Shown in pieces: positions 1-64,000 of a stretch of 64,000 nucleotides of DNA. The stretch covers positions 80,166,001 to 80,230,000 of the forward strand of contig OY740782.1 in assembly GCA_963514005.1 (NCBI GenBank), given 5' to 3'. The DNA is from Raja brachyura. Lineage: Eukaryota. The translations under genes and the position numbers were made by a program. A model generated the notes under the pieces. That model made no database searches and was not told the DNA's origin. It saw only the letters and a list, made by a program, of their open reading frames with translations. Each line of letters begins with the position of its first letter. The stretch's first letter is position 1.

Positions 1-75
1 CGAAACGATCATCCAGTCTGCGTTTGGCCTTGCCGATATATAGGAGCCCACACCGATAACAATATATCCGCGAGA
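1..75 (-). mobile_element. Penelope-like element fragment (GIY-YIG endonuclease)
   Basis: Minus strand reads CGLLYIGKAKRRLDDRF, matching CQLLYIGETKRRFAHRI in the Penelope ORF at 62009-62455; runs off the window edge. Confidence 0.7.
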
Positions 76-99
76 CCACGTATAAACTGGGCTAATTTT

Positions 100-720
100 C
101 TCAGATGCTTAAGAAAGTAAACACACTGAAGTACTTTCTGCATCATTTGTATCAGTGTGAAGGGACTGCTAGTGGTATATATGTCCTGTTAGCTAGTCGT
201 ATATATGTCTTGGAAACTCAAGATTTCAACCATCTCTTTGGCAACTTTGATGAGGTCAGGGTTGTGTTTAATCTCACATCCACAACCAACTCTTTCATCT
301 GGCTGACATTAACAGAAGAGTACCAATGTTGAAGGTTAAGTTGAAGGAAATGTTATGACCAATTTTAACCAACTGAGGTCGGCTGGCTGAAAGACTTGAA
401 GACAATTGCAGATGGAGATCCCAAGGCCAAGATTCAGATGTGTAGCATATTCAGTACTATAGTGTTGAAGGCTGAGCTGTAGCCAATGAACAGCATGCTG
501 ACATAGGTGTAGTAATTGTCAAGGCGATCCAGAGCTGAATATAGTGCAAGGGAGATAGCAACCCACGTAGACCTATACTTTCCTGTATGCAAATTGCAAT
601 GGGTCCAGATTGTTCAGAAGAGTGGCACAGACGTGAGCTTTAACCAGTCTTTCAAAGCATTTCATTATGATCAATATTAGAACTAGTGGGCAGTAGTCAT
701 TGAGACAGGACAGCTCCAAT
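100..720 (-). mobile_element. Decayed Rex1/Babar LINE reverse transcriptase fragment
   Basis: Minus-strand peptides [36 protein letters not shown] and YSSAFNTI parallel the Rex1 RT at 56088-56915. Confidence 0.75.
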
Positions 721-2200: not shown

Positions 2201-2685
2201 AAGGGTAAGTTCATAGGAGGCATTCTGGACATCTTCCTCAACCAATAAATCCCTGACCAGAAGGGGAATGGGCTATGCTGGTTTTCATTTTAAGTTGTGT
2301 GAAAAAATATCTAGTTATCTTATTTAGGAATTCTCTATGAAAGTCTGCACTTTATGAAAGTCTGCAATACAAGGACAACGGCCCCATAGATCTTACAGAG
2401 TCTTGGAATACATCCAAAGCTATGATAATTTGATAGCTCATCACTAAAGGGAGTGGATGGAGAAGAGAGATTTATCCATCCACTCAGATGCCATGTATGT
2501 AAAGTTGATCTCCTTTCATGGTCATAAATTTAGTGGAGTTCTCTGCTTCTCTGGGTGTAAGAGTGGTAATGATGAATTCATTAACTTTTTGAAGGGGAAT
2601 GAAAGAATATGAAGACTATGGAGAGAACAGAGTTTAGATAAAAGATCAGCCATGATCATGTCAAACAACCAAACATGCTCAAAGC

Positions 2686-3150
2686 AATCTCCTGGTTGCC
2701 GAACACTTTAATTCCCAATCCTATTCCCACACTGACCTTTCTGCCCTCGGCCTCCTTCATTGTCAGAGTAAAGGTAAAAGCAAATCGGAGGAACAGCTTC
2801 TCATATTTTGCCTGGGCAGCTTACAACCCAATGGTATGAATATGATTTCTCCAACTTCAAGTAACCCTTGCATTCCCTCTCTCTTCATCCCTACCCCACC
2901 CAAGTCGCACAAGCATTTCATTGCCAACCAGCAAACACCTAACAATGGCCCTTCTTTTATCATCTATACTTTTTTGCATATATTTCATTCATTTGTTCTA
3001 TACCTCTCTACATCACCATCTATATCTCTTGTTTCCCTTTCCCCTGACTAATTTGAAGAAGGGTCTCAACTCGAAATGTCACCCATTTCTTCTCTCCAGA
3101 GATATTGCCTGTCCCACTGAGTTACTCCAACATTTTGTGTCAATCTTCGG
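2686..3150 (+). mobile_element. Penelope-like element 3' part plus terminal repeat
   Basis: Similar to 62278-62460 (end of GIY-YIG ORF), followed by TGAAGAAGGGTCTCAACTCGAAATGTCACCCAT terminal repeat at ~3055-3150. Confidence 0.8.
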
Positions 3151-3642: not shown

Positions 3643-5069
3643 GATCCATTGTTTAAAAAGGGTTCAAAGAATAAACCTAGCAATTATAGACCTGTTAGTT
3701 TGACGTCAGTGGTGGGCAAATTAATGGAAAGGATACTTAGAGATAATATATATAAGCATTTGGATAAACAGGGTCTGATCAGGGACAGTCAACATGGATT
3801 TGTGCCTGGAAGGTCATGTTTGACAAACCTTCTTGAATTTTTTGAAGAGGTTACTAGGGAAATTGATGAGGGTAAAGCAGTGGATGTTGTCTATGTGGAT
3901 GTCAGTAAGGCCTTTGATAAGGTTCCCCATGGGAGGTTGGTTAAGAAGGTTCAATCTTTGGTTGTTAATGGCGGAGTAGCAAGATAGATTCAACAGTGGC
4001 TGAATGCGAGATGCCAGAGAGTAATGGTGGATGGCTGTTTGTCAGGTTGGAAGCCGGTGACCAGTGGGGTGCCTCAGGGATCTGTGTTGAGTCCACTGTT
4101 GTTTGTCATGGACATCAATGATCTGGATGATGGGGTGGAAAATTAGATAAGTAAGTATGCAGATGATACTAAGATAGGTGGTGCTGTGGATAATGAAGTC
4201 TACAGAGAGATTTGAGCCATTTGGAAGAGTGGGCTGAAAGATGGCAGATGGAGTTTAATGCTGATAAGTGTGAGGTGCTACATCTTGGCAGGACACATCA
4301 AAATAGGACATACATGGTAAATGGTAGGGAATTGAGGAATGCTGCGGAACAGAGGGATCTGGGAATAACTGTGCATAGTTCCCTGAAGGTGGAATCGCAT
4401 GTAGATAGGGTGGTAAAGAAAGGTTTTGGTGTGCTGGCCTTTATAAATCAGAGCATTGAATATAGGAGTAGGGAAGTAATGTTAAAATTGTACAAGGCAT
4501 TGGTGAGACCAATTCTGGAGTATGGTGCACAATTTTGGTCACCTAATTATAGGAAGGATGTCAACAAACTAGAGAGAGTACAGAGGAGATTTACTAGAAT
4601 GTTGCCTGGGTTCCAGCAACTAAGTTACAGAGAAAGGTTGAACAAGTTTGGTCTTTATTCTTTGGAGTGCAGAAGGTTAAGGGGGGACTTGATTGAGGTC
4701 TTTAAAATGATGAAAGGGATAGACAGAGTTGACGTGGATAACCTTTCCCATTGAGGGTAGGGAAGATTCAAACAAGAGGGCATGACATGAGAATTAAGGG
4801 ACAGATGTTTAGGGGTAACATGAGGGGGAACTTCTTTACTCAGAGAGTGGTGGCTGTGTGGAATGAGCTTCCTGCAGAAGTGGTGGAGGCAGGATCGATT
4901 TTAACATTTAAAAGTAAAGTGGATAGGTATATGGACGGGAAGGGAATGGAGGGGTACGGTCTGAGTGCAGGTAGATGGGACTAGGGGAAAATAAATGTTC
5001 GGCACGGACAGGAAGGGCCGAGAGGGCCTGTTTCCGTGCTGTAATTGTTATATGGTATATGGTTATATG
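3643..5069 (+). mobile_element. CR1 LINE, 5'-truncated (RT to tail)
   Basis: Broken RT ORFs (NYRPVSLTSVVGK, SQHGF, KAFDKV, YADD at ~4155), 3' UTR, and (TATATGGT)n tail. Confidence 0.95.
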
Positions 5070-5349
5070 ATCACAGAATTTCTCACGCTCAAAAATCCTT
5101 TAAAATAAATAAATAGAGTCAAGAGCAATTCAATTCGCCCAAGGCTTCCAGATCTCCTCCACACTCACCAATGAGAATAGTTTTCTGTCGGCGGGTTTCC
5201 CGTAAAGAACAAGCAATTTGATTGTCTTAAGCCCGTCGCACACTATTTAAAATGGCAATGTAACTGCAGTACTAATGATTCCATTTTACATTCATGGAAC
5301 TAAAATCTGCAGGTGCTGGAAATACAAAATAAAGCAATAATTGTTTCAG

Positions 5350-6090
5350 AGGTGAGTAAAAACCATCAGGGGAATATATAAGGTTAATGCATAGTCTTTT
5401 CCCGGGAGAAGTGATTCAAGAACTGGAGGGCATTGGTTTAAAGCAGGGATGTCAAACTACCGGCCTGCGAAGTGGTCCAATCCAGCCCGCAGGATGATTT
5501 GGGGAAAAAACGTTTTGTTTAGAGTCACTGACACACACTCACACACCTTCACTCACACCCTCACTTCAATAAAAAATAGAGGCTAACTGTTTTCATTGTC
5601 TGAGTTTTGATTGCTAGAAACAGGCTAATAAAAATTAGGTGCAGTTGTGTTGTCTTCATTTACAATTTGTTTAGTTATGCCTACATTGTGTCTGCTAAGG
5701 ATCAATTTCAAATGTTTTATTAATAGAAAGGGTGTGTTCGCGCGAGCATAACTGATCTGGCCCACATTAAGTCGTATTTTGCCCAATCCGGCCCGTGACC
5801 TAAAATGGGTTTGACACCCCTGGTTTATAGCGAGAGAGGAACGATTTAATAGGAACCTGAGGGACAACATTTTCACGCAGAGGATGGTGGGTATGTGGAA
5901 CAAGCTGCCAGGGGAAGTAGGCAGGTAAAATGACAGCATTTAAGAGACATTTGGACAGATACGTGGAGAGGAAAGGTTTAAAGGGATATGGGCCAAATGC
6001 GGATAAGTGGGACTAGTTTAGATGGGGCATCATGATCTGCATGGACAAGTTGGGTTGAAGGGCCTGTTTCCATGCTGTAAGACTATGACA
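5350..6090 (+). mobile_element. CR1 3' fragment interrupted by a hAT MITE
   Basis: CR1 end motifs (AGGAACCTGAGGGACAACATTTTCAC; GGGCCTGTTTCCATGCTGTA) continue on both sides of the 5444-5822 insertion. Confidence 0.8.
5444..5822. mobile_element. hAT-superfamily (Charlie-like) non-autonomous MITE
   Basis: TIRs CAGGGATGTCAAAC / GTTTGACACCCCTG; 8-bp TSD GTTTAAAG (5436-5443) / GTTTATAG (5823-5830). Confidence 0.88.
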
Positions 6091-6282
6091 CATTGCAGGA
6101 AGGGTGCAAATGCTCTGGATCCCGGAGCGATTTATGAAGATGTTGGCAGGGCTGGGATCTTTTTCACTTTGATAACTGGGATTTGATAACTGGGATTGTA
6201 TTCTCTGCAGCAACGGAGGTGAAGGAAATACTTAGTTGAGGTGAATAATATTATGAGAATAGGACCTGTTTCGCTTAACAAG

Positions 6283-6415
6283 GTGTAGGAAGGAACTGCA
6301 GGTGATGGTTTAAACTGAAAATATACACAAAATGCTGGAATAACTCATCAGGACAGGCAGCATCTCTGGAAAGAAAGAATGGGTGATGTTTTGGGTCAAG
6401 ACCTTCAGACTGAAG
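6283..6415 (-). mobile_element. Penelope terminal-repeat (pLTR) solo copy
   Basis: AAGGAACTGCAG..ACACAAAATGCTGG..AACTCA..GGCAGCATCTCTGG..GGGTGATGTTTTGGGTC..CTTCAGACTGAAG is the reverse complement of the Penelope 3' repeat. Confidence 0.8.
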
Positions 6416-6502
6416 AGGTTGAAAACCAGCCAAGTAGATGTAAAAGACTGGAGATTATCCAACTAAGGGCAGAAATCAGAATCATGTGTTAATCTTTATT
6501 TA

Positions 6503-7708
6503 CCAGCATCACACGGGAGGGCTGGTCCCCCAATGCAATATTCCACCTCTCCACCAATACCAATATTGGTGGCCAGTGGGGGTGGGGGGGGGGGCTTTCT
6601 GGAGTGCTAGTATGGACATTGTGGGCCGAATAGATTCTTGGGCTGGCGGCTTAATCATTCAAGCATGTTGTGCTGGCAGCTCACTCACTCACGGCTGGTG
6701 GGCTGGCGGTTGACTCACGGCTATTCCTTGAAATTCCATTTCAAGCAGGCTGCAAGGCCACCAAATTCAAGTGCTGTTTCTTACCACTTTAAGCAGGGTG
6801 CAAGGCCACCAAATTCAAGTGCAGTTTCATACCATTTCAAGCAGGGTGCAAGGCCACGAAAGACAGCGAGTCATGACCTCTCCCTCCTCCATCTTGCAGA
6901 GACTGCCACGCCCACAATTCTGGGTTTTATAGTCCCTCCCCCATTCCCACCAGAAGGGGCATGGCCTTCATGGCGTGATTGACAGGAGAGAGAATCTCAA
7001 CATTTTTAACACTAATAACTCGTTTATTTTACATCGATGGGAAAAATCCTCGGCACCTGATGAGCGGAGGGGGATTCTGAGTAAGATGGCGAAAAATCAC
7101 AGCCATACGTGGTAGCGTTTTTTCTAAAATCAATATAAAGCGCAAACAGTAAGTGGTCAAGATTAGACTTTTAATTATATAGAAGGCAAAGTAACTTTAA
7201 TTAGGCAAGGCGACTTTAATTAGGCAAGGCAACATTAATTAGGCAAGGCAACTTTAATTAGGCAAGGCAACTTTAATCAGGCAACACAGCTTTAGCATTT
7301 CCAAACCAAAGGCAACACAGCTTTAGCATTTCCAAACTATATTTTCAAACCACATTACGGGCACTGACAGGTCAGTAAAACCATTCACAGTTTAGTAGAC
7401 ATGTGTTCAGTGTTATTCACAGCTCAGAATGAGAGATGTGGCCCTCTTGCTCCCCCATCTTGCAGAGACTGACTGAGGCACTCAACACTTCCGGGTTTTT
7501 ATAGTCCATCTGGAAGGGGCGTGGCCTTCAGGAGACAGATTCGCAACATTTTTTAAACACTAAAACTCTTTTATTTTTCGTCGATGGGAAAAATCTTCTT
7601 GTCCTGCGAAGATGGCCAAAAATCACAGCTGTAAGTGGTATCGTTTGTTCCAAAATCAAAATACAGAACAACAGGATGTGGTCAAGATCAGACTTTTAGT
7701 AATATAGA
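6503..7708 (-). mobile_element. Non-autonomous Helitron, copy 1 (5' end intact, 3' hairpin lost)
   Basis: Minus strand starts a|TCTATATTACTAAAAG at 7708; body homologous to 10903-11890 and 22459-24528; second internal TCTATATAATTAAAAG terminus at 7183. Confidence 0.8.
7184..7340. repeat. 19-bp tandem repeat (AGGCAAGGCAACTTTAATT x5) plus a ~31-bp duplication inside the Helitron
   Basis: Direct reading. Confidence 0.9.
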
Positions 7709-7730
7709 TATTACCGAAAGAAAAATTTAG

Positions 7731-8010
7731 TGGGGTGGCATGATGGCACAGCAGTAGAGTTGCTGCCTTACAGCACCACAGACCCAGATTTGATCCTGAC
7801 TACGGGTGCTGTCTGTACAGAATTTATACATTCTCCCTATGACCACATGTGTCTTCTCTAATTATTCCAGTTTCTCTCACATCTGAAAGAAGTGCTGGTT
7901 AGTGGGTTAATTGGCTTCTGTAAATTGTCCCTGGCGTGTTGGATGGAACTGGTATATGGTAGATTGCTGGTCAGTGTGGACTTGGTGGGCCGAAGGATCT
8001 GTTTCCATAT
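7731..8010 (+). mobile_element. tRNA-derived V-SINE (HE1-like)
   Basis: A-box TGGCACAGCAG, decayed B-box TTTGATCC, V-domain-like core, CR1-derived tail TGGGCCGAAGG..TGTTTCC. Confidence 0.85.
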
Positions 8011-8879
8011 ATATGTTTTACACGTATATCTTAATTTAGTTGAACCATATAATTGGTTGAATATATGGCATTATTTTCATCTTGTTTCTATAGTTAAAGG
8101 GTAAGGTTGATTAATTTATTAGTGCAGAATAGTGATGGAAATCCAACTTGCCTTGTTTCTGTGTTATTTTTTCTCAAAATATATGCATAACAGCATGAAT
8201 TATAATCTAATTTCCATACATGAATATACTAAGGTCATTCATGTGTTGCACCTGTTAATCAGAGCCTGGCTCTACTGTGGAATGTAATTTAGCCTAACCT
8301 TATTCATACCTAATCCGATTTAAAACATAAATGTTGCATTCAAGTTAAAAGACTCGCTACAGTATGCACCAGATTGCACAATTTCAAACTGAAAAATGCA
8401 AAAGCTCCCTACCGCTACTCTCCCTCGGACTTGGTCGCTGTGCTCCCTCACAATTTCTCACTCTCAACTCTCACACAATGTTGGCAGCCCTGTTGTTGCC
8501 ACATTGGCTTTTTGAACTCACAAAACTGGAATGATTATCCATGATCCTGTGGGGCTGAGAAAGAAGAGGACGAATTGATCACTCTTCAACATTTCATATC
8601 AGTTCTCATTGTGGCCTAAAACTCTGTAAACTGTTGCAAGGAAAAATAAATTGCACTTTATATCCTGGATCCAACAGATTATTGAATTATATTGAAATTA
8701 ATTTTAGGGCCTCAACTGGAAAAACGAATGTAAATACTACATCTTCAATTTATAATGTTAGATGAGAGATTTATATATTTTATTTTACTGTAGTCAAAAA
8801 AGCAAACCATCGGGAATACATGTATTCCTGAAAATCATAAAGGGAGAATTCCATTTAATAAAAGAGAGAATGCAGAAAA

Positions 8880-9900
8880 CAACAGAACTCTGGGGAATGT
8901 TGCAGAGCAGGGGGATCTTGGAGTATAAGTACACAGTTCCATGAAAGTGGCAGCACAGATAGATACGATGGTTAAGAAGGTATTTGGTACATTGGCCTTC
9001 CTCAATCAGGGTATTGAGTATAGAAGTTTGGACATTATGTTACAGTTGTACAAGAAGTTGGTGAGGTTGCATTTGGTATATCGTGTTCAGTTTTTGTCAC
9101 CTTGTTATAAGAATGATGTCATTAAGCTGGAAAGAGTGTTCAGAAGATTTATGGGGGATGTTGCCAGGACCCAAGGACCTAAGCTATGGGGAGATATTGG
9201 GTGAAATTAGGACTTAATTCCTTGAAGCACAGGAGGCTAAGAGGTGATTTTGTAGAGTTGCATAAAATTATGAGGGAACTGATAGGGTGAATGCACATTT
9301 ACCCAAGGTAGGATAATCAAGACCCAGAGGACATAGATTTAAGTTGTGAGCACAAAGATTTAATAGGAACATTAATGGCAGGAAGTAGCTGAGGCAGGTA
9401 CTAGTCATAGTTCTAGAGTCATAAAGTGTAACAGTGTGGAAACAGGCCCTTTGGCACAACTTGCCCACACCAGCCAACATGTCCCAGCTACATCCATCCC
9501 ACTTACCTGCGTTGGTCCACATCCCTCCAAACCTGTCCGATCCATGTACCTTTCTAACCATTTTTTAAGCATTGGGATAGCCTCAGCCTCAACTATTTCC
9601 TCTGGCAGCTTGTTCCATACACCCACCACCCTTTGTGTGATAATGTTACCCCTCAGATTCCTATTACATTTTTTCACCTTCACCTTAAACCTATGTCCTC
9701 TGGTTCTTGATTCACTGACTCTGTGCATACTACTATAATAATATTAAAATGACACTTGGACATGTACATGGATTAGAAAGGTTGAGAGAGATATGGGCCA
9801 AATGTAGACAAGTGGGACATGCTTAGATGGGGCATCTTAGTTGGTATTAACAAGTTGGGCTGAAGTGCCTATTTCCATGCTGTATGATTCTAGGACTCTA
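8880..9900 (+). mobile_element. CR1 3' fragment with an antisense CR1 nested inside
   Basis: ORF 8941-9204 (GIEYRSLDIMLQLYKKLVR); 3' tail resumes after ~9730. Confidence 0.85.
9412..9722 (-). mobile_element. CR1 3' end, antisense, nested
   Basis: Minus ORF SRTRGHRFKV..NLRGN..TQRVVGVWNKLP plus tail. Confidence 0.9.
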
Positions 9901-35624: not shown

Positions 35625-37925
35625 TGTGCAACGCCCCTTAGGCAACAGTGACCATAATATGGTGGAATTCTGCATTAGGATGGACAGTGACACGGTTAAT
35701 TCAGAGACTTGGTTTCTGAACTTGAATAAAGGAGACTTTGAAGGTATGAGATGGGAATTGGCTAGGATAGACTGGCAAATTATATTCACAGGATTGACAG
35801 TGGAGATGCAATGGTGAAGATTTAAAGAATGCATGGATGAACTCCAGAAATTGTTCATTCCTTGTCTTGTGTAAAAATAAAACTGGAAAGGCGGCTCAAC
35901 TGTGGCTGACAAGGCAAGTCAAGGATAGTTAAATCCAAGGAAGATGCAAAAAATTGGCCAGAGGAAGCAACAAACCAGAGACCTGGGAGAAATATAGAAC
36001 TCTACAGAGAGGACAAAGGGGTTAATTAAGGGGGGGGGGGGGGGGGGGGGAAGAGCATGAAAGAAAGCTTGCGGGAAATATAAAAACTGACTGTAAAAGT
36101 TTCTATATGAAAAAGGCAAAAGCTTAGTGAAGAAGAATGGAGGTCTCTTGCAGTCAGAGACAGGTGAATTTATAATGGGAAACAAGGAAATGGCAGAACA
36201 GTTAAACAAGTACTTTGTTTCTGTCTTCACTAAGGAAGACACAAACAATCTCCTGGAAATACTAGGAGACCGAGGATCTAGTGGGAGGGAGGAACTGAAG
36301 GTAATCCACATTAGTCAGAAAATGTTGTTAGGTAAACTGTTGGGACTGAAGGCAGATAAATCTCCAGGGCCAGATGGTCTGCATCCCAGAGTACTCAAGG
36401 AGGTGGCCCTTGAAATCGTGGATGCATTTGTGATCATTTCCCAATGTTCTCTCGACTCTGGGTCAGTTCCTGTGGACTGGTGGGTAGCCAATGCAGCTCC
36501 ACTTTTTAAGAAAAGAGAGAGAGAGGGAACAGTGAATTATAGACCAGTTAGCCTTTCATCGGTAGTGAGGAAGATGCTGGAGTTGATTATTAAAGATGTT
36601 ATAGCAGCGAATTTGGAAAGCAGTGGCGGGATCGGTCAAAGTCAGCATGGATTTAATGAAGGGGAAATCATGCTTGATTAATCTTTTGGAATTTCTTGAG
36701 GATGTAACAAGTAGAATAAGGGAGAACCAGTGAATAATAGAAAGCCAGTGGATGTGGTGTATCTGGACTTTCTAAAAGTATTTGACAAGGTCCCACACAA
36801 GAGATTAATGTGCAAAATTAAAGTATATGGTATTGGGGGTGGGGTATTGACATGGATAGAGAACAGGTTGGTAGACAGGAAGCAAAGAGTAGGAATTAAC
36901 GGGTCTTTTTCAGAATGGCAGGCAGTGACTAGTGGAATGCCGCAAGGCTCAGTGCTGGGAACCCAGTTATTTACAATAGAGATTAACGATTTAGACAAGG
37001 GAATTAAATATAACATCTATAAGTTTGTGGATGACACAAAGCTGGGTGGCAGTGTGAGCTTTGAGGAGGATGCTATGAGGCTGCAGGGTGACTTGGATAG
37101 GTTAAGTGAGTGGGCTGATGCATGGCAGATGCTGCATAATGTGGGTAAATGTGAGGTTATGCACTTTGGTGGCAAGAACAGGAAAGCAGATTATTATCTG
37201 AATGGTGACAAATTATGAGAAGGGGATGTGCAACGAGACCGAGGTGTGATTGTACAGTATGCAGGTTCAGCACGCAGTGAAGAAAGCCAATGGTATGTTA
37301 GCCTTTATTGTGAGAGGATTTGAGTTTAGGAGGTCCTACTGCAGTTGTACAGGGCCCTGGTGAGACTGCACCTGGAGTATTGTGTGCAATTTTGGTCACC
37401 TAATTTGAGGAAGGACATTATTGCTATGAGAGTGCAGCGTAGGTTCACCAAGTTAATACCCGGATGGCGGACTGACGTATGAGGAAAAAATGGGTCAACT
37501 TGGCTTGTACTTGCTGGAATTTAGAAGGATAAGAGGGGATCATATAGAAACATATAAAATTTTTAGAGGAATGAACGGGGCAGATGCAAGAAAATTTTTC
37601 CTGAATGGCGGAGTCCAGAACCAGGGGTCACAGTTTAAGAATAAGGGGCAGGCCATTTAGGACTGAGATGAGGAAAACCTTTTTTCACCCAGAGAGCTGC
37701 GAATCTGTGGAATTCTCTGCCAATGAAGGCAGTGGAGGTTGATTCACTGGATGTTTTAAAGAGAGAGTTAGATTTGGCTCTTAGGAATAAGGGAATCAAG
37801 GGATATGGGGGAAAAAGTCCAAACGGGGTACTGATTTTGGATGATCAGCTATGATGATACTGAATGGCGGTGCTGGCTCGAAAGGCTGAATGGCCTACTC
37901 TTGTACCTATTTTCTATGTTTATAT
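35625..37925 (+). mobile_element. CR1, 5'-truncated 2.3 kb, inserted into an antisense CR1 tail (35553-35624 and 37926-38090)
   Basis: Broken ORF2 pieces 35626, 36127, 36730 (SDHN, NYRPVSL, PQGSVLG, FVDD) and TTTCTATG tail. Confidence 0.93.
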
Positions 37926-38604
37926 CTCTCCTTTCCCCACAACACCATTCTCCTGCGTTCTCCCACACTTGTACTAATCAAGAATCTATTAAGCTTTAAA
38001 AATACTCAACATGGCCTTCACAGCCATCTATGGCAATGAATTCCACAGATTCAACAACCTCTGACTAAAGAAATGTCTCCTCATCTCCTTTTATTCAAAA
38101 TAAATGTTTTGCACTATTATGGCCTGGTTAACTCATATGATTGATGATTGATCATTGTATGATTGATATGGTTGTAGGATTGATCATTGTATATTTACTT
38201 GATGCGTTGATGTATTAATGACCCTGTAAAAACTCCAATAACTAAGAATTTAATTGTTCTGTTCCCCATACAATTAAATAATTAAACCCTCTTGACTTTA
38301 AAAACTGTTGATCCCTACTTTTATTGCTGCTAACTGTTATGGATTTTTCAGGGGTTATAAAAGTACGTGGAAGTAGCAGCCATGAATTCAAAACAAGAAC
38401 CAGTCTTCAGAATTTCTCTTCTAATGCAAATTGAAAGAAATAATCAGTTGGAAATGAAAAGGACAAGTTTGCAAACAATCAGTCTATCTACTAAGACTAT
38501 TGAATATGTTAATAGGGTACATAAACAACTAGAAATTTTCAGCTTAATTTATTTAACATAGTAGAGATGAAGGAAGCATCTGTACATATGTACATCTGTA
38601 CAAA

Positions 38605-39661: not shown

Positions 39662-39850
39662 AAACTGCAAAGTGCTAGAGTAACTCAGCAGGTCAGGCAA
39701 CATCTGTGGAGGGAATAGACAAGCGACATTTCCGTTCAGGACCGTTCTTCAGATAAGAAGTATTACCCATCTATTCCCTCACCAGATGCTGTATAACCAC
39801 TGAGTTACTCCAACACTTTGTGTGCTCATGATTCTGGACTCTGCAGTTCT
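39662..39850. mobile_element. Older palindromic Penelope terminal-repeat insertion
   Basis: GTGCTAGAGTAACTCAG..CTTCAGA followed by the inverted arm ..CTGAGTTACTCCAACAC. Confidence 0.75.
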
Positions 39851-41834
39851 TCCTATCTCGAATAGTTTAGTCATAATTGCCTTCTTTGCATCTGCCTGCA
39901 TCCCTCTTCTTCATTTACAGGTGCATATGATTCACTGATTCAGCAGAATGTAGTCGTTGAGTTGGCTTTGATATAACTTCCTCGTCCTTTTGCTGCATCA
40001 AGCTGTGTGACTGTTTTCAAAGTATTATTAATATATGTTACCCGTTCATGAAAATAAATGAAACGGGTGCAACCTAATTACAAAGTAATATAATCAACAG
40101 AAATTTCTAAACATCCAACAGTGGAACAGACAGAAGATAAAGCTGTGGGACTATACTTACAATCAGTGAAGATATTTTCATATATATTGCTCTGCAGGCT
40201 GCTCTTAGCTGAATGCCAATTTATTTGTTTTACATCGCAGACGAAAGACAATATACAAGGAAAAAATGTGACATGTTAACTATCAATATGAGCTCTGATG
40301 ATTTGAACCATAAGTTCAGTGCAAAGACTTTCTTTCCCCTTACCCTATCTTTCTCTCAGTTTCCTGCTTTCCTGTTCTGAAGGTGTTGACTCTTTGTCTT
40401 GGTGAGGGAAGGGCATGTTTCTCTATGATCCTTAGTATTTAATTTAGGTTACCATTGCTTGTTTGTAAGCTATCATACCAAATTGTTGCCAAACATAATA
40501 TCTCAATTCACTACATCTTTACCCAATGTTTGAGTAATTATAATTTCCAGCTGATAAGAGACATTCTGTTCTTCAGTTCAAGAATGGTAGAGGTCATTGG
40601 CAGTATTCTGACCACCATTCTATTCAAGATCAGTTCATTTAGTACAAACCAGGAATTGTATGTTGGATCTTCCAATTATGTACAGCTCAGATGATCAAAG
40701 AATATATTCAATGATCCAGCAGGAGACCATAACCTAGTCTTTTCTAATTATATTCCTCATTGCAAAGAGGAATAACTTCAAAGAAAGTGAAATCAGATTC
40801 CATTCTTTTTTTTACTGGCTGAACTAATGAAATGCAAACTAGAACATAAGGTCTCAATATATCGTATGTTAAAGGACTACTGAATGTTATCATCAGTTTG
40901 TATGGATTGGTGGCTAAAATATATATAAATTGAGACCAATGTGATCTTGTAGTTTCCTAAGTAAATGTAGCAAAGCTATGTAAAGGCTGTAGGGGACATG
41001 AGACAAAACACAGATACCCAGTTTGATGTTATAAATTATTATTCAATTTTGCAAACCAATTCCATTGAAAATCACATCATATTTTGAAATTAAATTTACT
41101 CAAGAGCTCTAAACTTATCTGGGACCAGCCACAAACATGGCTCCAAGATCCAGCCAAATAAGTTCAGGGAACTAAATTGAACATGCATCCTCCAATCTTG
41201 AATCATAACATGGGTTCCAATTTAAAGTGGCAGTCCACTCCTTTACCCATTATCTGAGAATAGCTGGATATTTTTTTAAACTGGAAAACATGTGCTGTAT
41301 GTTATTTTTTTCTACAACAAAAGATCAACGTTAAATTTTAATTATCAACCCGCCCAAATTTGCTGACTAAACTGAGCACAAAAAAGATCTCTATATTCTA
41401 GCACCACATTCCTCATTAATGTGCAGGATAAGGTGCCCTTTCTCTTCTGAATTCCACATGGACCATATCTGCTGTAAATTATATGAAGAGTCTCTTCAGC
41501 AAGTCCTCTTAGACTAAGTAGAGTAAAATGGAGCAAATGCTACAGACCATCAGTAGAAAGGCATCAGCTGAGCTGCTGGGAAAGTATTGCTATTTCTTAA
41601 CGTGTGTTTTGCTAGAATTCACTGATTGTATAGGTGGTGGGAATAGATGCAATATAAATTTCAAATAGAATTGTATACAAACATAAAAAGGAAAAAAAAT
41701 ACAGCTTTGGGGAAAGAGCAGAGGGGTGGAACTAACTGAAAAACAGCAAAACAAGATGATAAAGATGGATTAAATGGCCATCTCCCATGCTGTGATACCT
41801 TTGGCTGATTTCTAGAACTGTGATCACTTCAGCA

Positions 41835-44870: not shown

Positions 44871-46762
44871 CATAGCATTTAACAATATTAGAATTTCCAG
44901 AATAGTACCAGGCAGTCAGATTAACAATGACATTTGTTACTGAACAAAAATGTAATCTAATTCAAATGTTATCATTCTCGTTGTTGAGAGTTCAGCAGAT
45001 AAGACAAGTTGACAGGAATATTTATTTCAATGGAGGATTTTTGGATGACACAACCAAAGCCCCATTTACCGGTCTTGTCCTTTCAAATTGATGTCAACAT
45101 ACATAAGGTACTTTGTAACCAAAAACTGAAATGCCAGAGAAGAATTCAACCCATGTCCACCCATCTTCAAGTAACATGGGTAGAAAACTATTAACTGGCC
45201 ATCTACCTAAGTGTTCCTATTATACCCAGAATGTTTAACATGCTAGCCTACAAAACATTAGTAACTGTACTTTGAAATAATGTACTCTAAGTTTGTCAAG
45301 TAATAATAAGGTGTAATATAACTGAGTCTTTCCTTAAAGTCAAACCACTGATCTTTTTAGGGTTTGCCATCCACGGTATTGTACAAATGGCCATATTTAT
45401 TTATACTCCATGGAAGAGACAATCAATAGGCTATTTAATTGGTGCGTTCATCACAATAGTTTCAATTCCATCCATATCTTAAATTCAGACCCACTACTAT
45501 CAGCAGCTGTTTTGGTCAACGGTGAAGAACCATGGATCATTCCTATGTCTAAATGTGAAATACACAGGCCAATTATTGTGATCTATCTCTTGTGAAGTTA
45601 ATTTATCAAATTGTCAATGCACTATTAGCACAAATGGCTCAGTATTTATTAGGCAAACCTATCCAACTAGAGGAACATGTGCATTGCATGTCTTTTGGTT
45701 CATTTGGTAGCAGTTTAGTTCTTCACATAAACATTCCATCAGCTCTCTTCATTTAAAAAATATTATTAAACCCAATGTTGAGACCAGATGACTCCAAGTT
45801 GCCTTATAAACAGTTGCTGTTACTCATTTTTTGGTGGGGATTTTTTCAGGAGGCAGAGGCCCGAGCCACCAATTTGGGAGTATAAAGTGGTATTTAAATT
45901 ATCCATCACACTCCTACCCTGGGTCTCAGCTTTTTACACGGTTACAAAGAATAAGAAATACCTATCTTCTCTGCAGGCTTGTGGGGAGAGGGAGAACAAA
46001 GATTCCAAGCCAGATATCTCTTATCCAGACATCTCAGTGGTCGAAATGGCCACCTGTTCTGCAATGATCTGTAATTCCTTTGAAAGGGAATATTTCTGCT
46101 TTTCAGATTCAACATGACATTCAATTATTTCAGATAGTATTTTGTTTCCTTATTACTCCTATTACAATCCCTGTTGCTTTGATTATCATTTTAAAATTGC
46201 TTTGATTATCATTTAAAATCATTTTAAAACTCTCTGTTTTTTCCTTCCTACCCTTCTTTGTTTGCATCTTAAAATTGATTTTATTTTGAATATTTTTGGG
46301 CACAATAACCCCCAGAAAATCTCATAAATAGGTGTTTCCTAGATACTGTTGCTGAGTATTTCTAGCAAAATCTGTTTTTTTTTTCTATACTTGCAATGAA
46401 TTGCATATATTCATTTCTAACTGATCAACAAATAAAACAACACCAATTCAGTAAAATCCCCCAAAAACTGCACATCAACATATATTCCTCAAAGCTCTGA
46501 GAAAATAGGTGATCGTATCCAGAAATACATTTTAACATTTCCATGTCAATGGCAGATGCTCAAACATGGAAGCATTACATGAGGAAATATTTCATATTTG
46601 ACACATTTTAGGCAGAAGGTGATAGTCATTACTGAGCTCTAAACAATAACCTTGGATGGAAAAGTAAATGACAGTATCCCATATGTTTTCTTTGGATGAA
46701 GGACATATCTGCTTCCTTGAAAATAACTTTCAAGAATAAAGGAAGTGAATGAAGCCACTTAC

Positions 46763-46932
46763 GGCTGGCAGAGCTTGATAAGATCCTGGTCGGTCGTGCC
46801 TGGTGGAAGGCCCCTAATGTACAGATTTGTCTTACTCAGCTGCTCGCCACCACTGTTGTTGCTGCTGTTGTTGCTGCTGTTTGTGCTCGGACTGGGAGGA
46901 GCCATAGGGTGGGGAGCTGGTGCATAGGATTG
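46763..46932 (-). CDS. RBMS3: RBMS3 internal coding exon (orthologue of human exon 2; start of RRM1)
   Basis: 170-nt exon ttgtttaattacag|CAATCC...CAGCC|gtaagt encoding [57 protein letters not shown], near-identical to human RBMS3 as I recall it; RNP2 LYIRGL. Confidence 0.95.
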
Positions 46933-48619: not shown

Positions 48620-48740
48620 GGGTTACACAAAAAGCTGGAGAAACTCAGCATGTGCAGCAGCATCTAAGGAGCGAAGGAGATAGGCGACGTTTCGGGTCGA
48701 GACCCTTCTTCAGACCTTTTCACCCAGCATTTGGTGTACC
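48620..48740 (-). mobile_element. Penelope terminal-repeat copy with an intact hammerhead-like motif
   Basis: Minus strand AGGT-CTGAAGA-A-GGGT-CTCG-ACCC-GAAAC-GTC-GCCT (48682-48717). Confidence 0.8.
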
Positions 48741-54569: not shown

Positions 54570-57500
54570 GTAATCAATTAATCAAGTTTTATTCGTCACT
54601 TGCACATAAGTGCACATAAGTGCAAGTGAAATGAATTTGCCAGCAGTGGTACAATAAGAAAGAACGCACAATACACAATACAAAAAAATTACACAAACAT
54701 CCACCACAGCATTCATCACTGTTGTGGAAGGCACAAAAATTGGCCAGTCCTCCTCCATTTTCCCGTCGTGGTCGGGACCTCAACCCTCCACAGTCGCCGC
54801 TGCAGGCATCCAGATGCACAGACAGGGTAAGTCCAGGTAAGTCCTGAATCGGTGCCTCCCCACCAGAGGCCACGGCTTCAAGATGGTGTAGCCCACGGTC
54901 GAAATTTAAAGTCCCCGCCGCGCCGCAGCCAGAAGCACCGCAGACCGCAGGGCCAGCAGTCAGAGCTCCTCTCCAGGGATCCCGGGCAAGGGACCCCGCT
55001 CCGGATGGTAAGTCCCCGCCGCGCAAGCAGTAGAAGTTGGCCTCGGACTGGCGGTCAGAGCTCTTCTCCTCCGGAGTCTCCAATGAGGTATCCCAGGCTG
55101 CGGATTCCGTGCCAGCTGGAGCTCCGCAGACTGCAGCTTCAGGCAAGCATGGGCCAGCGAATGGAGCGCCCCCATCCGGCGAGGGCTCTCCCGCTCTGCG
55201 ACGAGAGTCCGCGCTGAGCCCGCTGCCAAAGCCCCGAGAGCGTCTCCAGGAAAGGCCGCACCAATCCTCAATGTTAGGCCATGGGGGAGGTGACATGGAA
55301 AAAGTTGCCTCTCCGTGGAGGAGGCGACCAAAACGGTTTCTGATGGCTCTGGGGAAGGAGCTGTTCCTGAACCTGGATGTTGCCGATTTCAGGCTCCTGT
55401 ACCTTCTACCTGAAGGCAGTGAAGAGATGAATGTGTGGCAAGGATGGTGTGAGTCATTGATGATGCTGTCAGCCTTTTTGTGGCAGCGACTGTGGTAGAT
55501 CCCCTTGATAGTTGGGAGGTCAGGGCCGATGATGGACTGGGCAGTGTTTACAACTTTTTGCAGTCTTTTCCACTCCTGGGCGCTCAACTTGCCAAATCAA
55601 GCCACAAAAGCATGCTTTCTACTGTGCACCTGTAGAAATTCGAGAGAGTCCTCCTTGACATACCGACTCTCCATAATCTTCTCTGGACGTAGAGGCACTG
55701 ATGTGCTTTCTTTATAATTGCATCAGTGTTCTAGGACCAGGAGAGATCTTCAGAGATATGCACGCCCAGGAATTTGAAGCTCTTGACCCTTTCCACCATC
55801 GACCCGTTGATATAAACGGGACCATAGGTCCCCATCCTATTCATTCCAAAGTCCGCAATCAGATCCTTGGTTTTGCTGGTGTTCAGAACCAGGTTATTGT
55901 GCTGGCACCATTTGGTCAATCGGTCTATACTTTGACTCATCTCCATCAATGATGCGTTCCACAACAGTGGTGTCATTAGCGAACTTGATGATGGTGTTCG
56001 CACTGTGACCGGCCACGCAGTCATGAGTATACAGTGAGTACAGCAGGGGGCTGAGCACGCAGCCTTCAGGTGCTCCTGTGCTGATTGTTATTGAGTCTTA
56101 CACATTTCCACCAATACGAACAGACTGTGGTTTGTGAATGAGGAAGTCGAGGATCCAATTGCAGAGGGATGCGCGGAGACCCAGTTCTGAGAGCTTGGTA
56201 ACCAGCTTGGTCCAACCAGAGGGGATGGTTGTTTTAAATGCCGAGCTGTAGTCAATGAATACGTATGAGTATGAGTGACGTATGAGTTTTTGTTGTCCAA
56301 GTGGTCCAGAGCCGAGTGGAGAGCTAGCGAGATCGCATCCACCATTGATCTTTTGTGGTGGTAAGCGAACTGCAGTGGGTCCAGGTTTTTGTCGAGGTAT
56401 GCGTTGATTTGCTCCATGATCAGCCTCTCAAAGCATTTCATCACCACAGGTCGATAGTCATTAAGGCACATCACTTTGCCCTTCTTGGGCACCAGTATTA
56501 TTAATGCCCTTTTAAAGCAGGTGAGAACCTCAGACCTCAGAAATGAGAGGTTGAAAATGTTCGTAAAAACTCCAGCCAGTTGGTCCGTATGGGTTTTTAG
56601 AACACGACCGGGTATACCATCAGGTCCAGGCGCTTTCCGAGGGTTCACCCCTCTGAAGGATTTTCTGACGTCGACCTCTGTGACTCTGCCAGAAATACCA
56701 TCATGGCAAATGGGGGCTCGGGAAGGCACATCAGTGTTCTCCCTATCAAAGCGTGCGTAAAACGCATTGAGCTCGCCAGGGAGTGATGCTTCGCTGACAT
56801 TTGAGCTGCCTCCTGATTTTGCCTTGTAGGAGGCCACGCCACAGTTGCCGAACATCTTTCTCATCTTCCAGCTTGGAGCAGAAGTCCCTTTTGGCCTTTT
56901 TGATGGCATTACCACGGTTGTATCTGGACTTCTTGTAGCCCTCTGTATCTTCAGACATGAATGCCCGGTGTCTGGCCTTCAGAAGAGAAACCCCCCCCGC
57001 CCCACCCCATCGACCAGCTCTGTACTGTCCTCACCTCTGGGGGTGCGCTCTTCAATTGCTGCCTGTAGGCAGAAAGAAAAAGCACCGCAGTATGGTCGGT
57101 TTTGCCGAAGTGAGGGCGAGGGATAGAGCGATAGGCATCCTTGATGGTCGTGTAGCAGTGGTCGAGGTTGTTTGGTCCTCTGATGTTGCAGGACACATGT
57201 TGGTAGAAGTTAGGGAGCGATTTCTTAAGGTTGGCTTTGTTAAAATTCCCATCTATGGTGGTAAATGCCTCGGGGTAAACTGTCGGGTGTTTGTTGACCA
57301 CGGCGTCCAGCTCCTCCAGTGCCAGATAGACATCAGCTTGGGGAGGGATGTAGACCGCGGTCAGGATGATGGAGGTGAATTCCCTTGGTAGGTAGAAGGG
57401 ACGGCACTTCACAGCCAGGTGTTCCAGGCGTGGGGAGCAGGAGTTGGACTGGACTGCCACGTCTGAGCACCACGCAGAGTTGACCATGAGGCAGACGCCC

Positions 57501-58975: not shown

Positions 58976-61041
58976 TAGCCTGTCTCACGGTGCGAGTTGA
59001 CTCACGAGTGACCCCGAATGAAAGACTCGTGGTTGTGTACGAGACTCCAAGTTTACGATCAAGAGTTTAACCGAGTTCCCACGGGTATGACTAAGTTTGC
59101 CATTTACTTCTCATTTCCGCGATGTTCCAAGTTCCTCTCCTGAGTTACCAAGGTTCCTCTCCCGAGGAACCAAGAATGAAAGCCTGTTTTAAGTATCAAA
59201 TAGAGGAGCTGGACAGCATCTCGTACAGTGCAGTATAATTCATTATTGAAAGTTATTCAATTTCAGAACTTTAAAAAACTAGGCAGGATCTTGGCCCCGC
59301 ACTCGCTGCCATTGTGCAGCAAGGAGGCGGTGCGGCGAAGCAACAGTGTAAAAAGAAGACAACTCCATCCTGTGGCTTTGAGTTAAAGATAGAATTCAGC
59401 GTGGCCGCGTCTATTGATATGACCTACAAAGGTAAAATGCGCACCGTCCAGTGCCAGAGCTAGGCTGGGATCATTCTCTGCACTCATCTCTCTCTTTCTG
59501 TGTGTGCATTAGCAGGGGGAAGAGCGGTCTAGAAGACCACTACCGCCTGCCCCTTGCAACCATCAACTTGTTTGTTCCTTTGGTGCGCCTCATCTGCCCT
59601 CCTCCCATCCCAGTGCTGCCCCAGCTCTCTGCCCCATTCTCTTGGAAATGTCGCTTGCGCCGCTGTAACGAGGAGGGGTCCAGCTGGCTGGCTTGGTGGG
59701 TGGGTGGGTGAGCAGGGAGGGGGAGTGGGTACAAACCACCATTCTCATTCTCAAAAGTCAGGCAGAGCCATGTAGAATTCACGTTTCTCTCTGCTTCATA
59801 TACGTGGGAATACCCTCAATATGGTCACTCAGTGGGCAGGCAGCACCTCTGGAGAGAAGGAATGGGTGACGGGATGACGTTTAAAATTTAAATCATGGGC
59901 AAACCATCTTGGAAACCGTGGAGCCCATATCATTGGACCCAGGACTCTCAGTGAATGTTGTTCAAAAAGTGTTGCCAATCTCTTTTGTTGGAGATGGTCA
60001 TTGCCTGATAATAGAATTACAGTCAAACAGCACAGAACCATCCCTTCACATCCTTTTTACCCATCCTCACTAATCGCATTTGCTCAAATTAGGTCCTTAT
60101 CCTTTCCCTGCCTTGTCTATTTAAATACTTTAGAGAATACAGGCCCTTTAGCCCACCGAGTCTGTGCCTGCACATTAACACCATCCTACCCACAATAGGG
60201 ACAACTTTTACGAGCCAATTAACCTACAAACCTGAACATCTTTGGAGTGTGGGAGGAAGCCGAAGACCTCGGAGAAAAACCACGCAGGTCACGGGGAGAC
60301 ATACCCACAAAGTCATTCACATCAAGATCCATTTTGTTTTGATGCTCGTTTATTGAGATGATGAAACTGCAATGTTACAGTTCAATCACAATCACTGGAA
60401 GCACAGAACAAATTGTGAGCTTTCCAAACCTTGGTGTAACAAACAATGTGAAATCAAGAGGGTAATAACCATATAACAATAACCATATAACAATTACAGC
60501 ACGGAAACAGGCCTTCTCGGCCTTTCCAGTCCGTGCCGACCATTTATTTTCCCCTCGTCCCATCTACCTGCACTCAGACCATACCCCTCCATTCCCTTCC
60601 CGTCCAGAGAGAGACAGTACTAATTCCAATCACCACAATCTAAATCAAGACAGGATCAGCCTCCACACAGGGACTTTCCCACAGTCCGTGTCTGCCCATC
60701 ACCACCACTCCCATTGCCCCTGCCGCTTTCTTGTCTACATGTGTGTGTCAGAGAGATGGCACCACTCTGTACTGCTGCACCTTTCAACTGGGATGCCCAA
60801 CTGTTCCTGGTCGGATTTGAGGAAGGGCTCCAGCAGAATGGACGAAGAGGGGAGTCAGGTGAAAGAGGGCGGACTTGTCTGTTCTGAGCAGTCCCTGGGC
60901 TTCAGTACCTGCCGTTAGCACCACAAGTCGCTAAGTTCCGCGCGCGAGTTCCGACGTTTTCGCTACGTTAATTGTATGTAATTACCGCGAGTGAAAACTC
61001 GGGGTCACTCGTCGGTCGACTCGCACTGTGAGACAGGGGTT
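58976..61041. mobile_element. PIF/Harbinger-type non-autonomous element, ~2.07 kb
   Basis: ~40-bp TIRs CCTGTCTCACGGTGCGAGTTGAC..CGAGTGACCCCGA / TCGGGGTCACTCG..GTCGACTCGCACTGTGAGACAGG; TAA duplication 58973-58975 / 61042-61044; contains pLTR (~59830-59880), SINE (~60130-60300, minus) and CR1 tail (~60465-60605, minus) pieces. Confidence 0.85.
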
Positions 61042-61249: not shown

Positions 61250-62008
61250 GAATGTAAAATGGCAGCGCCTCGCAGCAATGGCCTCTGCAGTCTGTCTGTC
61301 CTTTTTTTAATTGTTGTACTGTTGAGTGTATAGTTTGGTTGTATATTGTTTTTAGCTGTGTATATGTGGGGGGGGGGGGTGGGGATTTTTAAATCTCTTC
61401 CCTGTACGGGGGACCTGACCTTTCCCCTGTTGGGTCTCCATTGTCGTTGGGGCCTAACACCGTGGAGCGGCCTCCAACCGGAACGACCTGGGGGCTCCGG
61501 TCGCGGAGCCTGCAGACTAGCCATCATGGAGCTGGCCGGCTTCGAAGCGTGGAGAGCTGTGGTGGCATGTGGCTGCGACCCGACTTCGGAGCTTCGGTGG
61601 CTCCAGCCGCAGGCCCGGTGGACAAGGACATCGGGAGCTCGCAGGTCCCTGGTGGGAGACCACTTTTTCCGAGCTCCCACAATGGCAACTTCTCCCGCCC
61701 AAGTTGCGGGGTTGAAAACGAACCGGAGCAGGGCTTTACATCGCCCAGCAAGGCTTTAATGGCCGCGGGACTTACCATCGTCCACCGTGGGCTTTAACAT
61801 CAGGAGAAGAATGGAATACAGGGGAGAAGCAATGACTTTGCCTTCCATCACAGTGAAGAGGAGATTCACTGTGATGGATGTTTGTGTAAATTGTGTTAAT
61901 TGTGTGTCTTGTTAATTGTTTCTTCTTGTTGTATGACTGCAGAAACCAAATTTTGTTTGAACTTCATTTGAGGTTCAAATGTCAAAAAACGGTATTGTAT
62001 TGTATTGT
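61250..62008 (+). mobile_element. Non-autonomous retroelement with a Rex1-like 3' end
   Basis: Starts AAAATGGCAGCGCC, GC-rich non-coding body, two 3' hairpins, (ATTGT)n tail; inserted in Penelope at GGTT|AATTCG. Confidence 0.7.
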
Positions 62009-62455
62009 AATTCGTCCCTTCCCATCCAAACCACCCCTGGCACTTTCCCTTGCAACCGCAGGAAATGCTACACTTGTCGCTTTACCTCCCCCCTTGACTC
62101 CATTCAAGGACCCAAGCAGTCTTTCCAGGTGCGGCAGAGGTTCACCTGCACCTCCTCCAACCTCATCTATTGCATCTGCTGCTCTACGTGTCAGCTGCTC
62201 TACATCGGTGAGACCAAACGTAGGTTTGCCCATCGCATCGCCCAACACCTCCACTCGGTTCGCAATAACCAACCTGATCTCCCGGTGGCTCAGCACTTCA
62301 ACTCCCTCTCCCATTCCGAATCTGACCGTTCTGCCCTGGGCCTCCTCCATGGCCAGAGTGAGTCCCACCGTAAATGGGAGGAGCAGCACCTCATATTTCA
62401 CTTGGGTAGTTTACACCCCAGCTGTATGAACATTGACTTCTCCAATTTCAGGTAG
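62009..62455 (+). pseudogene. Penelope GIY-YIG endonuclease coding remnant
   Basis: CNRRKCYTC zinc knuckle, FTCTSSNLIYCICC, YIGETKRRF..RIAQH, PVAQHFN. Confidence 0.9.
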
Positions 62456-62577
62456 TCCATGCCTTCTCCCTTTTTCCCCTCCCCATCACAGCTCTCCCAC
62501 AGCCCACTGTCTACGCCTCTTCCTTTCTTTTTCCCACTCCCCCCCCCCACATCAGTCTGAAGAAGGGTCTCGACCTG

Positions 62578-63591
62578 GGGGTAGGGTGTTGACATGGATA
62601 GAAAATTGGTTGGCAGACTGGAAGAAAAGAGTAGGAGTGAACGGGTCCTTTTCAGAATGGCAGGCAGTGGCGAGTGGAGTGCCACAAGGCTCGGTGTTGG
62701 GGCCGCAACTGTTTACCATATATATTAATGATTTGGAAGAGGGAATTAGGAGCAACACTAGCAAGTTTGCGGATGACACAAACCTGGGTGGCAGTGTGAA
62801 TTGTGAAGAGGATGTTAGGAGGTTGCAGGGTGACCTGGACAAGTTGAGTGAGTGGGCAGATGCGTGGCAGATGCAGTATAATATAGATAAATATGAGGTT
62901 ATCCACTTCGGCAGCAAAAACAAGGGGGCATATTATTATCTCAATGGAATGTTGGCCTTCATAACAAGAGGATTTCAGTATAGGAGTAAAGAGGTTCTTC
63001 TTCAGTTGTATAGGGCTCTGGTGAGACCATATCTGGAGTATTGTGTACAGTTTTGGTCTAATTTGAGGAAGGACATCCTTGTGATTGAGGCAGTGCAGCG
63101 TAGGTTCACGAGATTGATCCCTGGGATGGCGGGACTGTCATATGAGGAAAGATTGAAAAGACTAGGCTTGTAATCACTGGAGTTTAGAAGGATGAGGGGG
63201 ATCTTATAGAAACATATAAAATTATAAAAGGACTGGACAAGCTAGATGCAGGAAAAATGTTCCCAATGTTGGGCGAGTCCAGAACCAGGGGCCACAGTCT
63301 TAGAATAAAGGGGAGGACATTTAAGACTGAGGTGAGAAAGAACATTTTCACCCAGAAAGTTGTGAATTTATGGAATTCCCTGGCACAGAGGGCAGTGGAG
63401 GCCAAATCGCTGGATGGATTTAAGAGAGAGTTAGATAGATCTCTAGAGGCTAGTTGAATCTAGGGATATGGGGAGGGCAATATGGGTTATTGATAGGGGA
63501 CGATCAGCCATGATCACAATGAATGGCGGTGCTGGCTTGAAGGGCCGAATGGCCTCTTCCTGCACCTATTTTCTATGTTTTTATGTTTCAA
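62578..63591 (+). mobile_element. CR1, 5'-truncated, inserted into the Penelope terminal repeat
   Basis: RT ([17 protein letters not shown]) with an internal deletion, then tail; splits CTGAAGAAGGGTCTCGACC|TGAAACGTCACC. Confidence 0.93.
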
Positions 63592-64000
63592 TGAAACGTC
63601 ACCTATTTCCTTTGTTCCATAGATGCTGCCTCACCCGCTGAGTTTCTCCAGCATTTTTGTCTACCTTCGATTTTCCAGCATCTGCAGTTCCTTCTTAAAC
63701 ATTTAAAGTATTGCTGGTTTTATCTCAAAGGGCTTTTTCATGGTAGGCAAGAACAGATAACATCAACATTTCATGCCATCGTTAATCAGGTAGGCTGTTT
63801 AGTCCTGAATGGAAGATACTGTTGAAACTGTGCTCATCCAGACAAATGGGAGGTATTCAATCACATCCGAGCTTATGCCATGTTTATAATGGTTAAGTTA
63901 CAAAGAGTCAGGAGGTGCTGAATAGTACTTGCTGTACTTCTCTTGTCGTCTTAGCATATACTCCGGTGTAGTGCTTAATTTAATGAACTAGCATTGCCAG

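Follow-up and report, generated by a model that had tools for sequence, protein, structure and literature searches.

A minimal hammerhead motif of Raja brachyura as part of the terminal repeat of a young Penelope-like element, and the probable origin of its short copies

The minimal hammerhead ribozymes (min-HHRs) described in the terminal repeats (pLTRs) of Penelope-like elements (PLEs) contain CUGANGA and GAAA boxes, and their listed features include one additional nucleotide that lies between 9 and 10.1, a G10.1-C11.1 pair and a palindromic 15.2-16.2 without loop 3; helices II and I measure 7-8 and 4-5 bp in Schistosoma, and helix I has 2 bp in D. virilis (PMC4209133). EN+ Neptune PLEs encode a single ORF with a DKG motif, reverse transcriptase (RT), a Zn-finger-like linker and GIY-YIG, and show partial tandems, an adjacent inverted copy and an optional 30-40-bp tail (Craig et al. 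2021, PMC8557442). The tail marks two internal RT starts (PMC11167929; PMC8557442), and the anole PLE (Poseidon PAc of Anolis) mainly uses uncut RNA as template, with no read ends at the cleavage site (Frangieh et al. 2024, PMC11167929). D. virilis Penelope has a TATA-less internal pLTR promoter with Inr and DPE, and its HHR follows a 75-nt intron located 46 nt downstream of the start (Schostak et al. 2008, PMC2377424). Non-LTR retrozymes are short non-coding tandem units, running from HHR to HHR, with a Type I HHR, and are proposed to derive from PLE pLTRs (Li et al., bioRxiv 2026.07.22.740005).

Here we analysed a 64-kb stretch of the R. brachyura genome (the window), in which a preliminary description had reported a minus-strand minimal hammerhead carried by a Penelope-derived repeat. 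Re-reading of 48717-48682 returned the letters as claimed (AGGU, CUGAAGA, one extra A, a GGGU/ACCC stem II with a CUCG loop, GAAA, CGUC and GCCU), and the hammerhead motif at 48682..48717 of the minus strand was confirmed. Positions are numbered from hammerhead C3 (0 = window 48713, minus strand), with the predicted cleavage between +27 and +28. The assignment to the minimal type also held, since CUGANGA and GAAA boxes with a U-H triplet, the extra nucleotide, G10.1-C11.1 and the palindromic ACGU were all present as in the PLE min-HHRs; the extra A after CUGAAGA, earlier regarded as non-canonical, is one of their described features (PMC4209133). The family shares with them the pLTR location, mostly solitary truncated copies and opposite-strand pairs, and differs in a helix II of 4 bp with frozen sequence and a helix I of 2 bp; cartilaginous fishes are not named in the available part of that report. 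The focal insertion is 96 bp long, begins 2 nt upstream of the HHR core, stops at the first of the two 3' ends (the one without the tail), and shows no clear target-site duplication (TSD) in the flanks examined (Table 1). Its flank at 48716-48740 resembles a 24-nt piece of the 3' part of an older cluster on the opposite strand, and is possibly a remnant arm or an older copy that served as target.

Table 1. Features of the focal copy, the host gene and other family members in the window.
Feature	Position	Strand	Basis or remarks
Focal short insertion: 3' pLTR piece of a young PLE fitting the Neptune type	48620..48715	-	98% identity to parent end
min-HHR core	48686..48713	-	sequence, descriptor, min-HHR definition of PMC4209133
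CUGAAGA	48713-48707	-	core part
Extra A	48706	-	core part
Stem II and CUCG loop	48705-48694	-	core part
GAAA	48693-48690	-	core part
CGUC	48689-48686	-	core part
Predicted cleavage site	between 48686 and 48685	-	hammerhead core sequence
Apparent stem I, 5' strand	48714..48717	-	outer two (48716-48717) are flank/junction letters; C and A in parent
Stem I, 3' strand GCCU	48682..48685	-	2 bp in parent, 4 bp in focal copy
Putative Bridge-I/MTE-like (48699-48688) and DPE-like (48689-48684) motifs	48684..48699	-	inferred; overlap HHR
RBMS-family host coding exon, start of RRM1, limits approximate	46759..46908	-	RBMS1 E 1.2e-11, RBMS2 E 6.5e-8
Old long copy: decayed GIY-YIG C-terminus (2662-2844), 3' UTR, decayed HHR	2662..3150	+	
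Tailed decayed copy, broken core	6283..6419	-	family profile
Head-to-head inverted pair around CAG-(T/A)-CTG quasi-palindrome	17819..18039		+ arm GUU, - arm decayed
Short copy, cleavage region deleted	19570..19660	-	family profile
Tailed decayed copy	22038..22172	+	family profile
Tailed decayed copy	26375..26524	-	family profile
Old inverted pair, mismatched stem II	39667..39853		
Fragment without 5' core	59825..59871	-	family profile
Old long copy: EN end decayed (61985-62449), HHR interrupted at 62576/63593	61985..63701	+	

The family profile found 13 arms in the window, 7 sense and 6 antisense to the host gene; all previously claimed sister sites exist, and two arms (39757-39853 and 59825-59871) were absent from the earlier list. 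An intact core with the GUC triplet was restricted to the focal arm, and one other arm with an intact core, 17937-18039 (+), has GUU instead. The split of the HHR at 62576/63593 corresponds to a later insertion of ~1 kb. The genome was sampled as 116 stretches (115 of about 10 kb, and the window) totalling 1,212,974 bases. A strict min-HHR descriptor run on both strands gave 48 matches, 46 of them in the focal PLE family, and 1, 0 and 1 matches on three Markov-shuffled controls; a family with divergent stem II was not found in these sampled bases, and an Rfam scan returned no hammerhead model at E<=10.

The Penelope origin proposed for the repeat was borne out by long copies running into an RT/GIY-YIG ORF and by tandem units with an HHR in each pLTR. 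Upstream of the pLTR end, these long copies contain a pyrimidine-rich 3' UTR, preceded by an ORF end with a C-x4-C-x2-C linker and GIY-YIG. The 40 scored genome matches to this parent region were 99-100% identical, and all 20 that were fetched end in the same HHR. Tandem units measure 3,965-4,043 bp (~4 kb), with the HHR ~160 nt before the ATG. As in EN+ Neptune PLEs, RT and, at the C-terminus, GIY-YIG share one ORF with a DKG motif and a Zn-finger-like CxxC linker between the two domains (Pfam matches to RVT_1 and GIY-YIG at E 1e-4 to 2e-3, below curated cut-offs, with YIDD and YIGET motifs visible), and tandem pLTRs, adjacent inverted copies and the tail are all present. The parent thus fits a Neptune-type EN+ PLE, a placement taken from domain order (PMC8557442); unlike Neptune PLEs, most insertions of the family are 95-135-bp pieces with one sharp 5' edge. 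At least four consecutive tandem units of 3,965 bp occur at G000:C18:46361109-46373600, where the two units read share one N-terminal frame break. At the pLTR-ORF junction of L107:7200-7215, the letters AAG|GTATG, which resemble a strong splice donor, overlap the ATG and lie 160 nt after the core; no partner acceptor or joint was seen for them. In the 1,212,974 bases the family profile had 477 matches, 418 of them with downstream body, equal to 345 arms per Mb; extrapolation to 2.7 Gb gives an estimated 0.9 million arms genome-wide. Intact cores numbered about 38 per Mb by the descriptor, roughly 100,000 per genome by extrapolation, compared with 4,000-9,000 for coelacanth and frog (PMC4209133). 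PLE min-HHRs, tails and inverted copies are already in print; among the papers listed by literature searches, none dealt with this family or with strong-stop PLE copies.

The preliminary description had suspected that the 4-bp stem I of the focal copy was a junction coincidence, and this proved correct. The letters ...GACCAGU precede the core in 20 of 20 long copies and in 20 of 20 loci of a second set, so that the helix I of the parent consists of U.G (or U-A) and G-C, followed by A x C; of 63 long copies, 57 have A opposite C at -3/+30. A 4-bp stem I occurred in 3 of the 48 descriptor matches, all three being short copies that use flank letters. A conserved 4-bp stem I formed through AAAGG in the top matches was rejected, since the query held flank and these letters lie mostly in the TSD of each copy. 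ACGU in place of helix III was found, as claimed, in five of six cluster consensuses, and the sixth (oldest) shows CpG decay at this site; G10.1-C11.1 is G-C in 201 of 293 copies, with the extra nucleotide present.

Covariation and preferential core conservation had been named as the test of the motif, and the outcome was divided. Two-sided covariation was absent within the family, where only one-sided changes (U-A/U.G) were seen. A metagenome scan gave three loci, one of them unrelated and two (L289/L290) from a single distant PLE family with 46-51% protein identity and the same hammerhead core; relative to the parent this one family (n=1) shows a compensatory change in each helix, helix I having C-G in place of G-C and helix II C-G in place of U-A. 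Core divergence was also low: 0 of 11 core positions vary among the six clusters versus 24 of 66 downstream (p 0.014), and 65 long copies showed 26 core mismatches against 52.6 expected, the core being half as diverged as the downstream part, a difference to which the alignment of A runs may contribute. G12 was kept in 37 of 65 long copies, G12 and ACGU being lost by CpG decay. Low core divergence together with this decay suggests that selection probably preserves the hammerhead in source elements alone, and that inserted copies decay. Cleavage would probably be weak, as a dimer and with protein help. RNAalifold on the six cluster consensuses predicted a downstream helix (+48..55 with +103..110) and pairing of the 5' core with the tail, with no two-sided changes. 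In the predicted fold of L142:5215-5350, likewise devoid of two-sided changes, the tail immediately ahead of the second RT start is the partner of the 5' core; if this pairing forms, the hammerhead would stay inactive in the short RNA.

The ends of the inserted copies bear on how they were made. Among 24 young matches (two of them duplicates), 13 end at +93..102 and 11 at +127..135, and the two 3' ends lie 35 nt apart, the length of the tail; two AC-rich 3' ends of this kind are shared with PAc, in which stem II contains the beginning of the ORF and the RT starts are located within that ORF (PMC11167929), whereas in the focal family the ATG comes only after the HHR and both ends. In the youngest cluster (L142:5310-5320; window 48620-48628) the first 3' end reads TAACCC, in the register of the vertebrate telomere repeat, which may be chance since older clusters differ there. 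For the 5' ends, young copies were chosen by their 3' side only (from +29), with the self-match of each search dropped, giving 87 copies in set 1 and 89 in set 2, the latter made up of 29 copies of one search and of rows 2-31 of two others. Of these 176 copies, 45 continue upstream for over 10 nt; the start falls at -10..-7 in 3 copies, at -6..0 in 76 (38 in each set, with modes at -2 and -3), at +1..10 in 38, at +11..27 in 13 and at +28 in 1. There was no pile-up at the GUC cleavage site among the young copies, and in the all-age sample 2 of 418 copies start at +28; a trace of ribozyme cleavage in the copies was thus not seen. Since 5' ends almost never fall at +28, the inserted copies derive from uncut RNA, as for the anole element, whose 5' edge is not discussed in the available part of its report (PMC11167929). 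Loose contig ends in four public runs pile at -4..-2 (contigs only; RNA origin presumed). An inverted arm was found in 50 of 131 short young copies. At L217, L251, L288, L341 and L372, short inserts between the TSD and the element start repeat the first letters of the element, which suggests RT slippage at the 5' end.

Taken together, the motif is the min-HHR of a PLE terminal repeat, and the focal copy a short insertion spanning the cleavage site, probably produced by reverse transcription that started internally and ran off the 5' end of the RNA. The sharp 5' edge is likely the RNA start site: the RNA would begin 2-5 nt before the core, and RT begun inside it would run off there. Because PLE RT starts internally, an RNA beginning at this edge would give a run-off cDNA of 95-135 nt, which is the size of the short copies; the PLE protein would start cDNA at +94 or +129, RNAs beginning in the pLTR would yield these 'strong-stop' copies, and read-through RNAs the long ones. 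In head-to-head copies, two cDNA ends would likely join at the CAG-N-CTG quasi-palindrome. Transcription of the element may proceed from an internal Pol II promoter, with the initiator A 3 nt before C3 and motifs resembling Bridge, MTE and DPE within the hammerhead. When A(-3) is taken as +1, the parent agrees with the initiator at 7/7, Bridge I at 5/5, MTE at 9/12 and DPE at 5/6 positions at set spacings, the motif table and spacings being those of PMC4581360, mostly defined in Drosophila and picked after the fact. Among 45 candidate starts, A(-3) ranked first with a score of 26, ahead of 19 for the runner-up, and the motif combination occurred outside the family once in 2.43 million positions. 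The initiator is present in the parent and lost in the focal copy, and neither Bridge I nor the initiator A occurs in the distant relative L289. The promoter motifs overlap bases already fixed by the hammerhead, and a YNCG tetraloop constraint could account for the loop CG. A TATA-less internal pLTR promoter with Inr and DPE would be shared with D. virilis Penelope (PMC2377424); unlike in that element, promoter and ribozyme would overlap, the start lying 3 nt before the core.

A cap-derived G is known from full-length L1 junctions (PMC11702581). In set 1 it was seen in 13 of 18 copies versus 5.0 expected, and in an all-age subset in 8 of 14 (5 of 13 in the sister subset, not significant); it was not replicated in the pre-specified set 2 (5/19 versus 5.1 expected). 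Pooled, the count was 18/37 versus 22/71 at other starts (p 0.09), and a lone G between TSD and start occurred in only 2 of 13 resolved copies. We tentatively suggest that the HHR might double as the PLE core promoter, with the start 3 nt before C3, and that the 95-135-bp inserts, in their hundreds of thousands, might be strong-stop cDNAs of uncut capped RNA. The stem II loop, its 3' strand and the GUC triplet would then also serve as Bridge/MTE/DPE elements. If so, this would account for pLTR stubs being solitary, for the frozen sequence of stem II and for a helix I of 2 bp, make the genome a map of the start of the PLE RNA, and offer a second reason for the conservation of the PLE hammerhead. 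With its youth (99-100% identical copies), ORF-bearing tandem sources and very many copies, the family provides a natural record of PLE insertion. According to this record the ends of inserted copies are not produced by the hammerhead, and a candidate start site overlaps the ribozyme.

The same PLE end piece could instead owe its edge to an RT stop or a template-switch hot spot on a longer RNA, located either at the hammerhead's foot or where the upstream pyrimidine tract begins. The unreplicated cap G, the 45 of 176 copies that read through the edge, the frequent inverted arms (50/131) joined at a quasi-palindrome, and folds that predict pairing of the 5' core with the tail or with downstream pyrimidines all agree with such a stop. 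We nevertheless consider it rather unlikely: the edge is one-sided (3 starts at -10..-7 versus 76 at -6..0), lies upstream of the predicted helices and is also shown by non-inverted copies, and the initiator and spaced motifs fall exactly at it.

A separate non-autonomous, ribozyme-driven family of retrozyme or SINE type, whose copies are transcribed, cleaved and remobilised, had been put forward earlier and now appears improbable. The very high copy number (345 arms per Mb) would suit it, short copies keeping -5..+33 would carry the putative promoter, derivation of non-LTR retrozymes from PLE pLTRs has been proposed (bioRxiv 2026.07.22.740005), and one degenerate tandem array exists at L067. 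This array (L067:7633-8150) consists of ~67-bp units starting inside the hammerhead at GAAA, with no 5' core; its layout is retrozyme-like and it holds no full ribozyme. However, each of the six sequence clusters has long members beside short and inverted ones, tandems make up 5 of the 180 copies that could be anchored (the other 238 of 418 do not enter these counts) and none of the tandems has an intact core, junctions differ from copy to copy, and copies span the cleavage site rather than end at it. The focal family thus shares with the retrozymes short non-coding units with a Type I HHR of pLTR origin, and its copies instead lie scattered, as single or inverted copies that carry the HHR at their 5' edge; neither the tandem units each with an HHR nor the unit ending at the cleavage site (1/176 at +28) that characterise retrozymes was found. 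Since every cluster combines short copies with long and inverted ones and tandems are few, neither a retrozyme nor a SINE-like family is needed, although remobilisation of short copies is possible.

Even less probable is a reading of the CAG before the core as a 3' splice acceptor, with splicing giving a longer helix I and an apparent 5' edge. A pyrimidine tract and CAG do lie directly before the core, and in D. virilis Penelope the intron extends up to helix I (PMC4209133); but the TSD abuts the start or lies no more than 8 nt away in 13 of 13 resolved copies starting at -2/-3, leaving no room for an exon, none of the 15 joints listed (881 more lie outside this listing) is a GT..AG joint to the CAG site, and joining the one nearby donor would still give A x C at the third pair. 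On TSD positions and these 15 joints, the splice-acceptor model was not supported.

The location of the host gene on the minus strand, stated earlier, was borne out by an RBMS-family exon, about 1.7 kb downstream of the focal copy, which is in sense orientation. A genome search with RRM_1 gave no match in the window, and the exon was found by translation. Protein matches place it in the RBMS family, and the gene is presumably RBMS3, as named earlier. Cleavage of host pre-mRNA by intronic copies, also raised earlier, is unlikely, and it is barely conceivable that sense copies like the focal one cleave as dimers and affect RBMS-family expression: the focal copy is sense with an intact core, its MFE fold in context has stem II and an extended stem I, and intact cores number about 38 per Mb, but that fold has an ensemble frequency of 0.18 (z 0.37), the active dimer lies 18-20 kcal/mol above the best dimer fold, the 64 kb hold no second intact sense core, arms are 7 sense versus 6 antisense, most window copies are decayed (1/13 with a full GUC core), min-HHR monomers show no cleavage and dimers little (PMC4209133), and the anole HHR needs its protein (PMC11167929).

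Two further kinds of repeat were observed in the window. A tandem array of ~47-48-bp units at 22476-23660, with a long open frame on the plus strand, is related to 6733-6861. Large LINE-like RT remnants lie in host introns at 29040-31336, 32101-32852, 35635-37936 and 55392-56978, and are presumably of CR1/L2 and Rex type.
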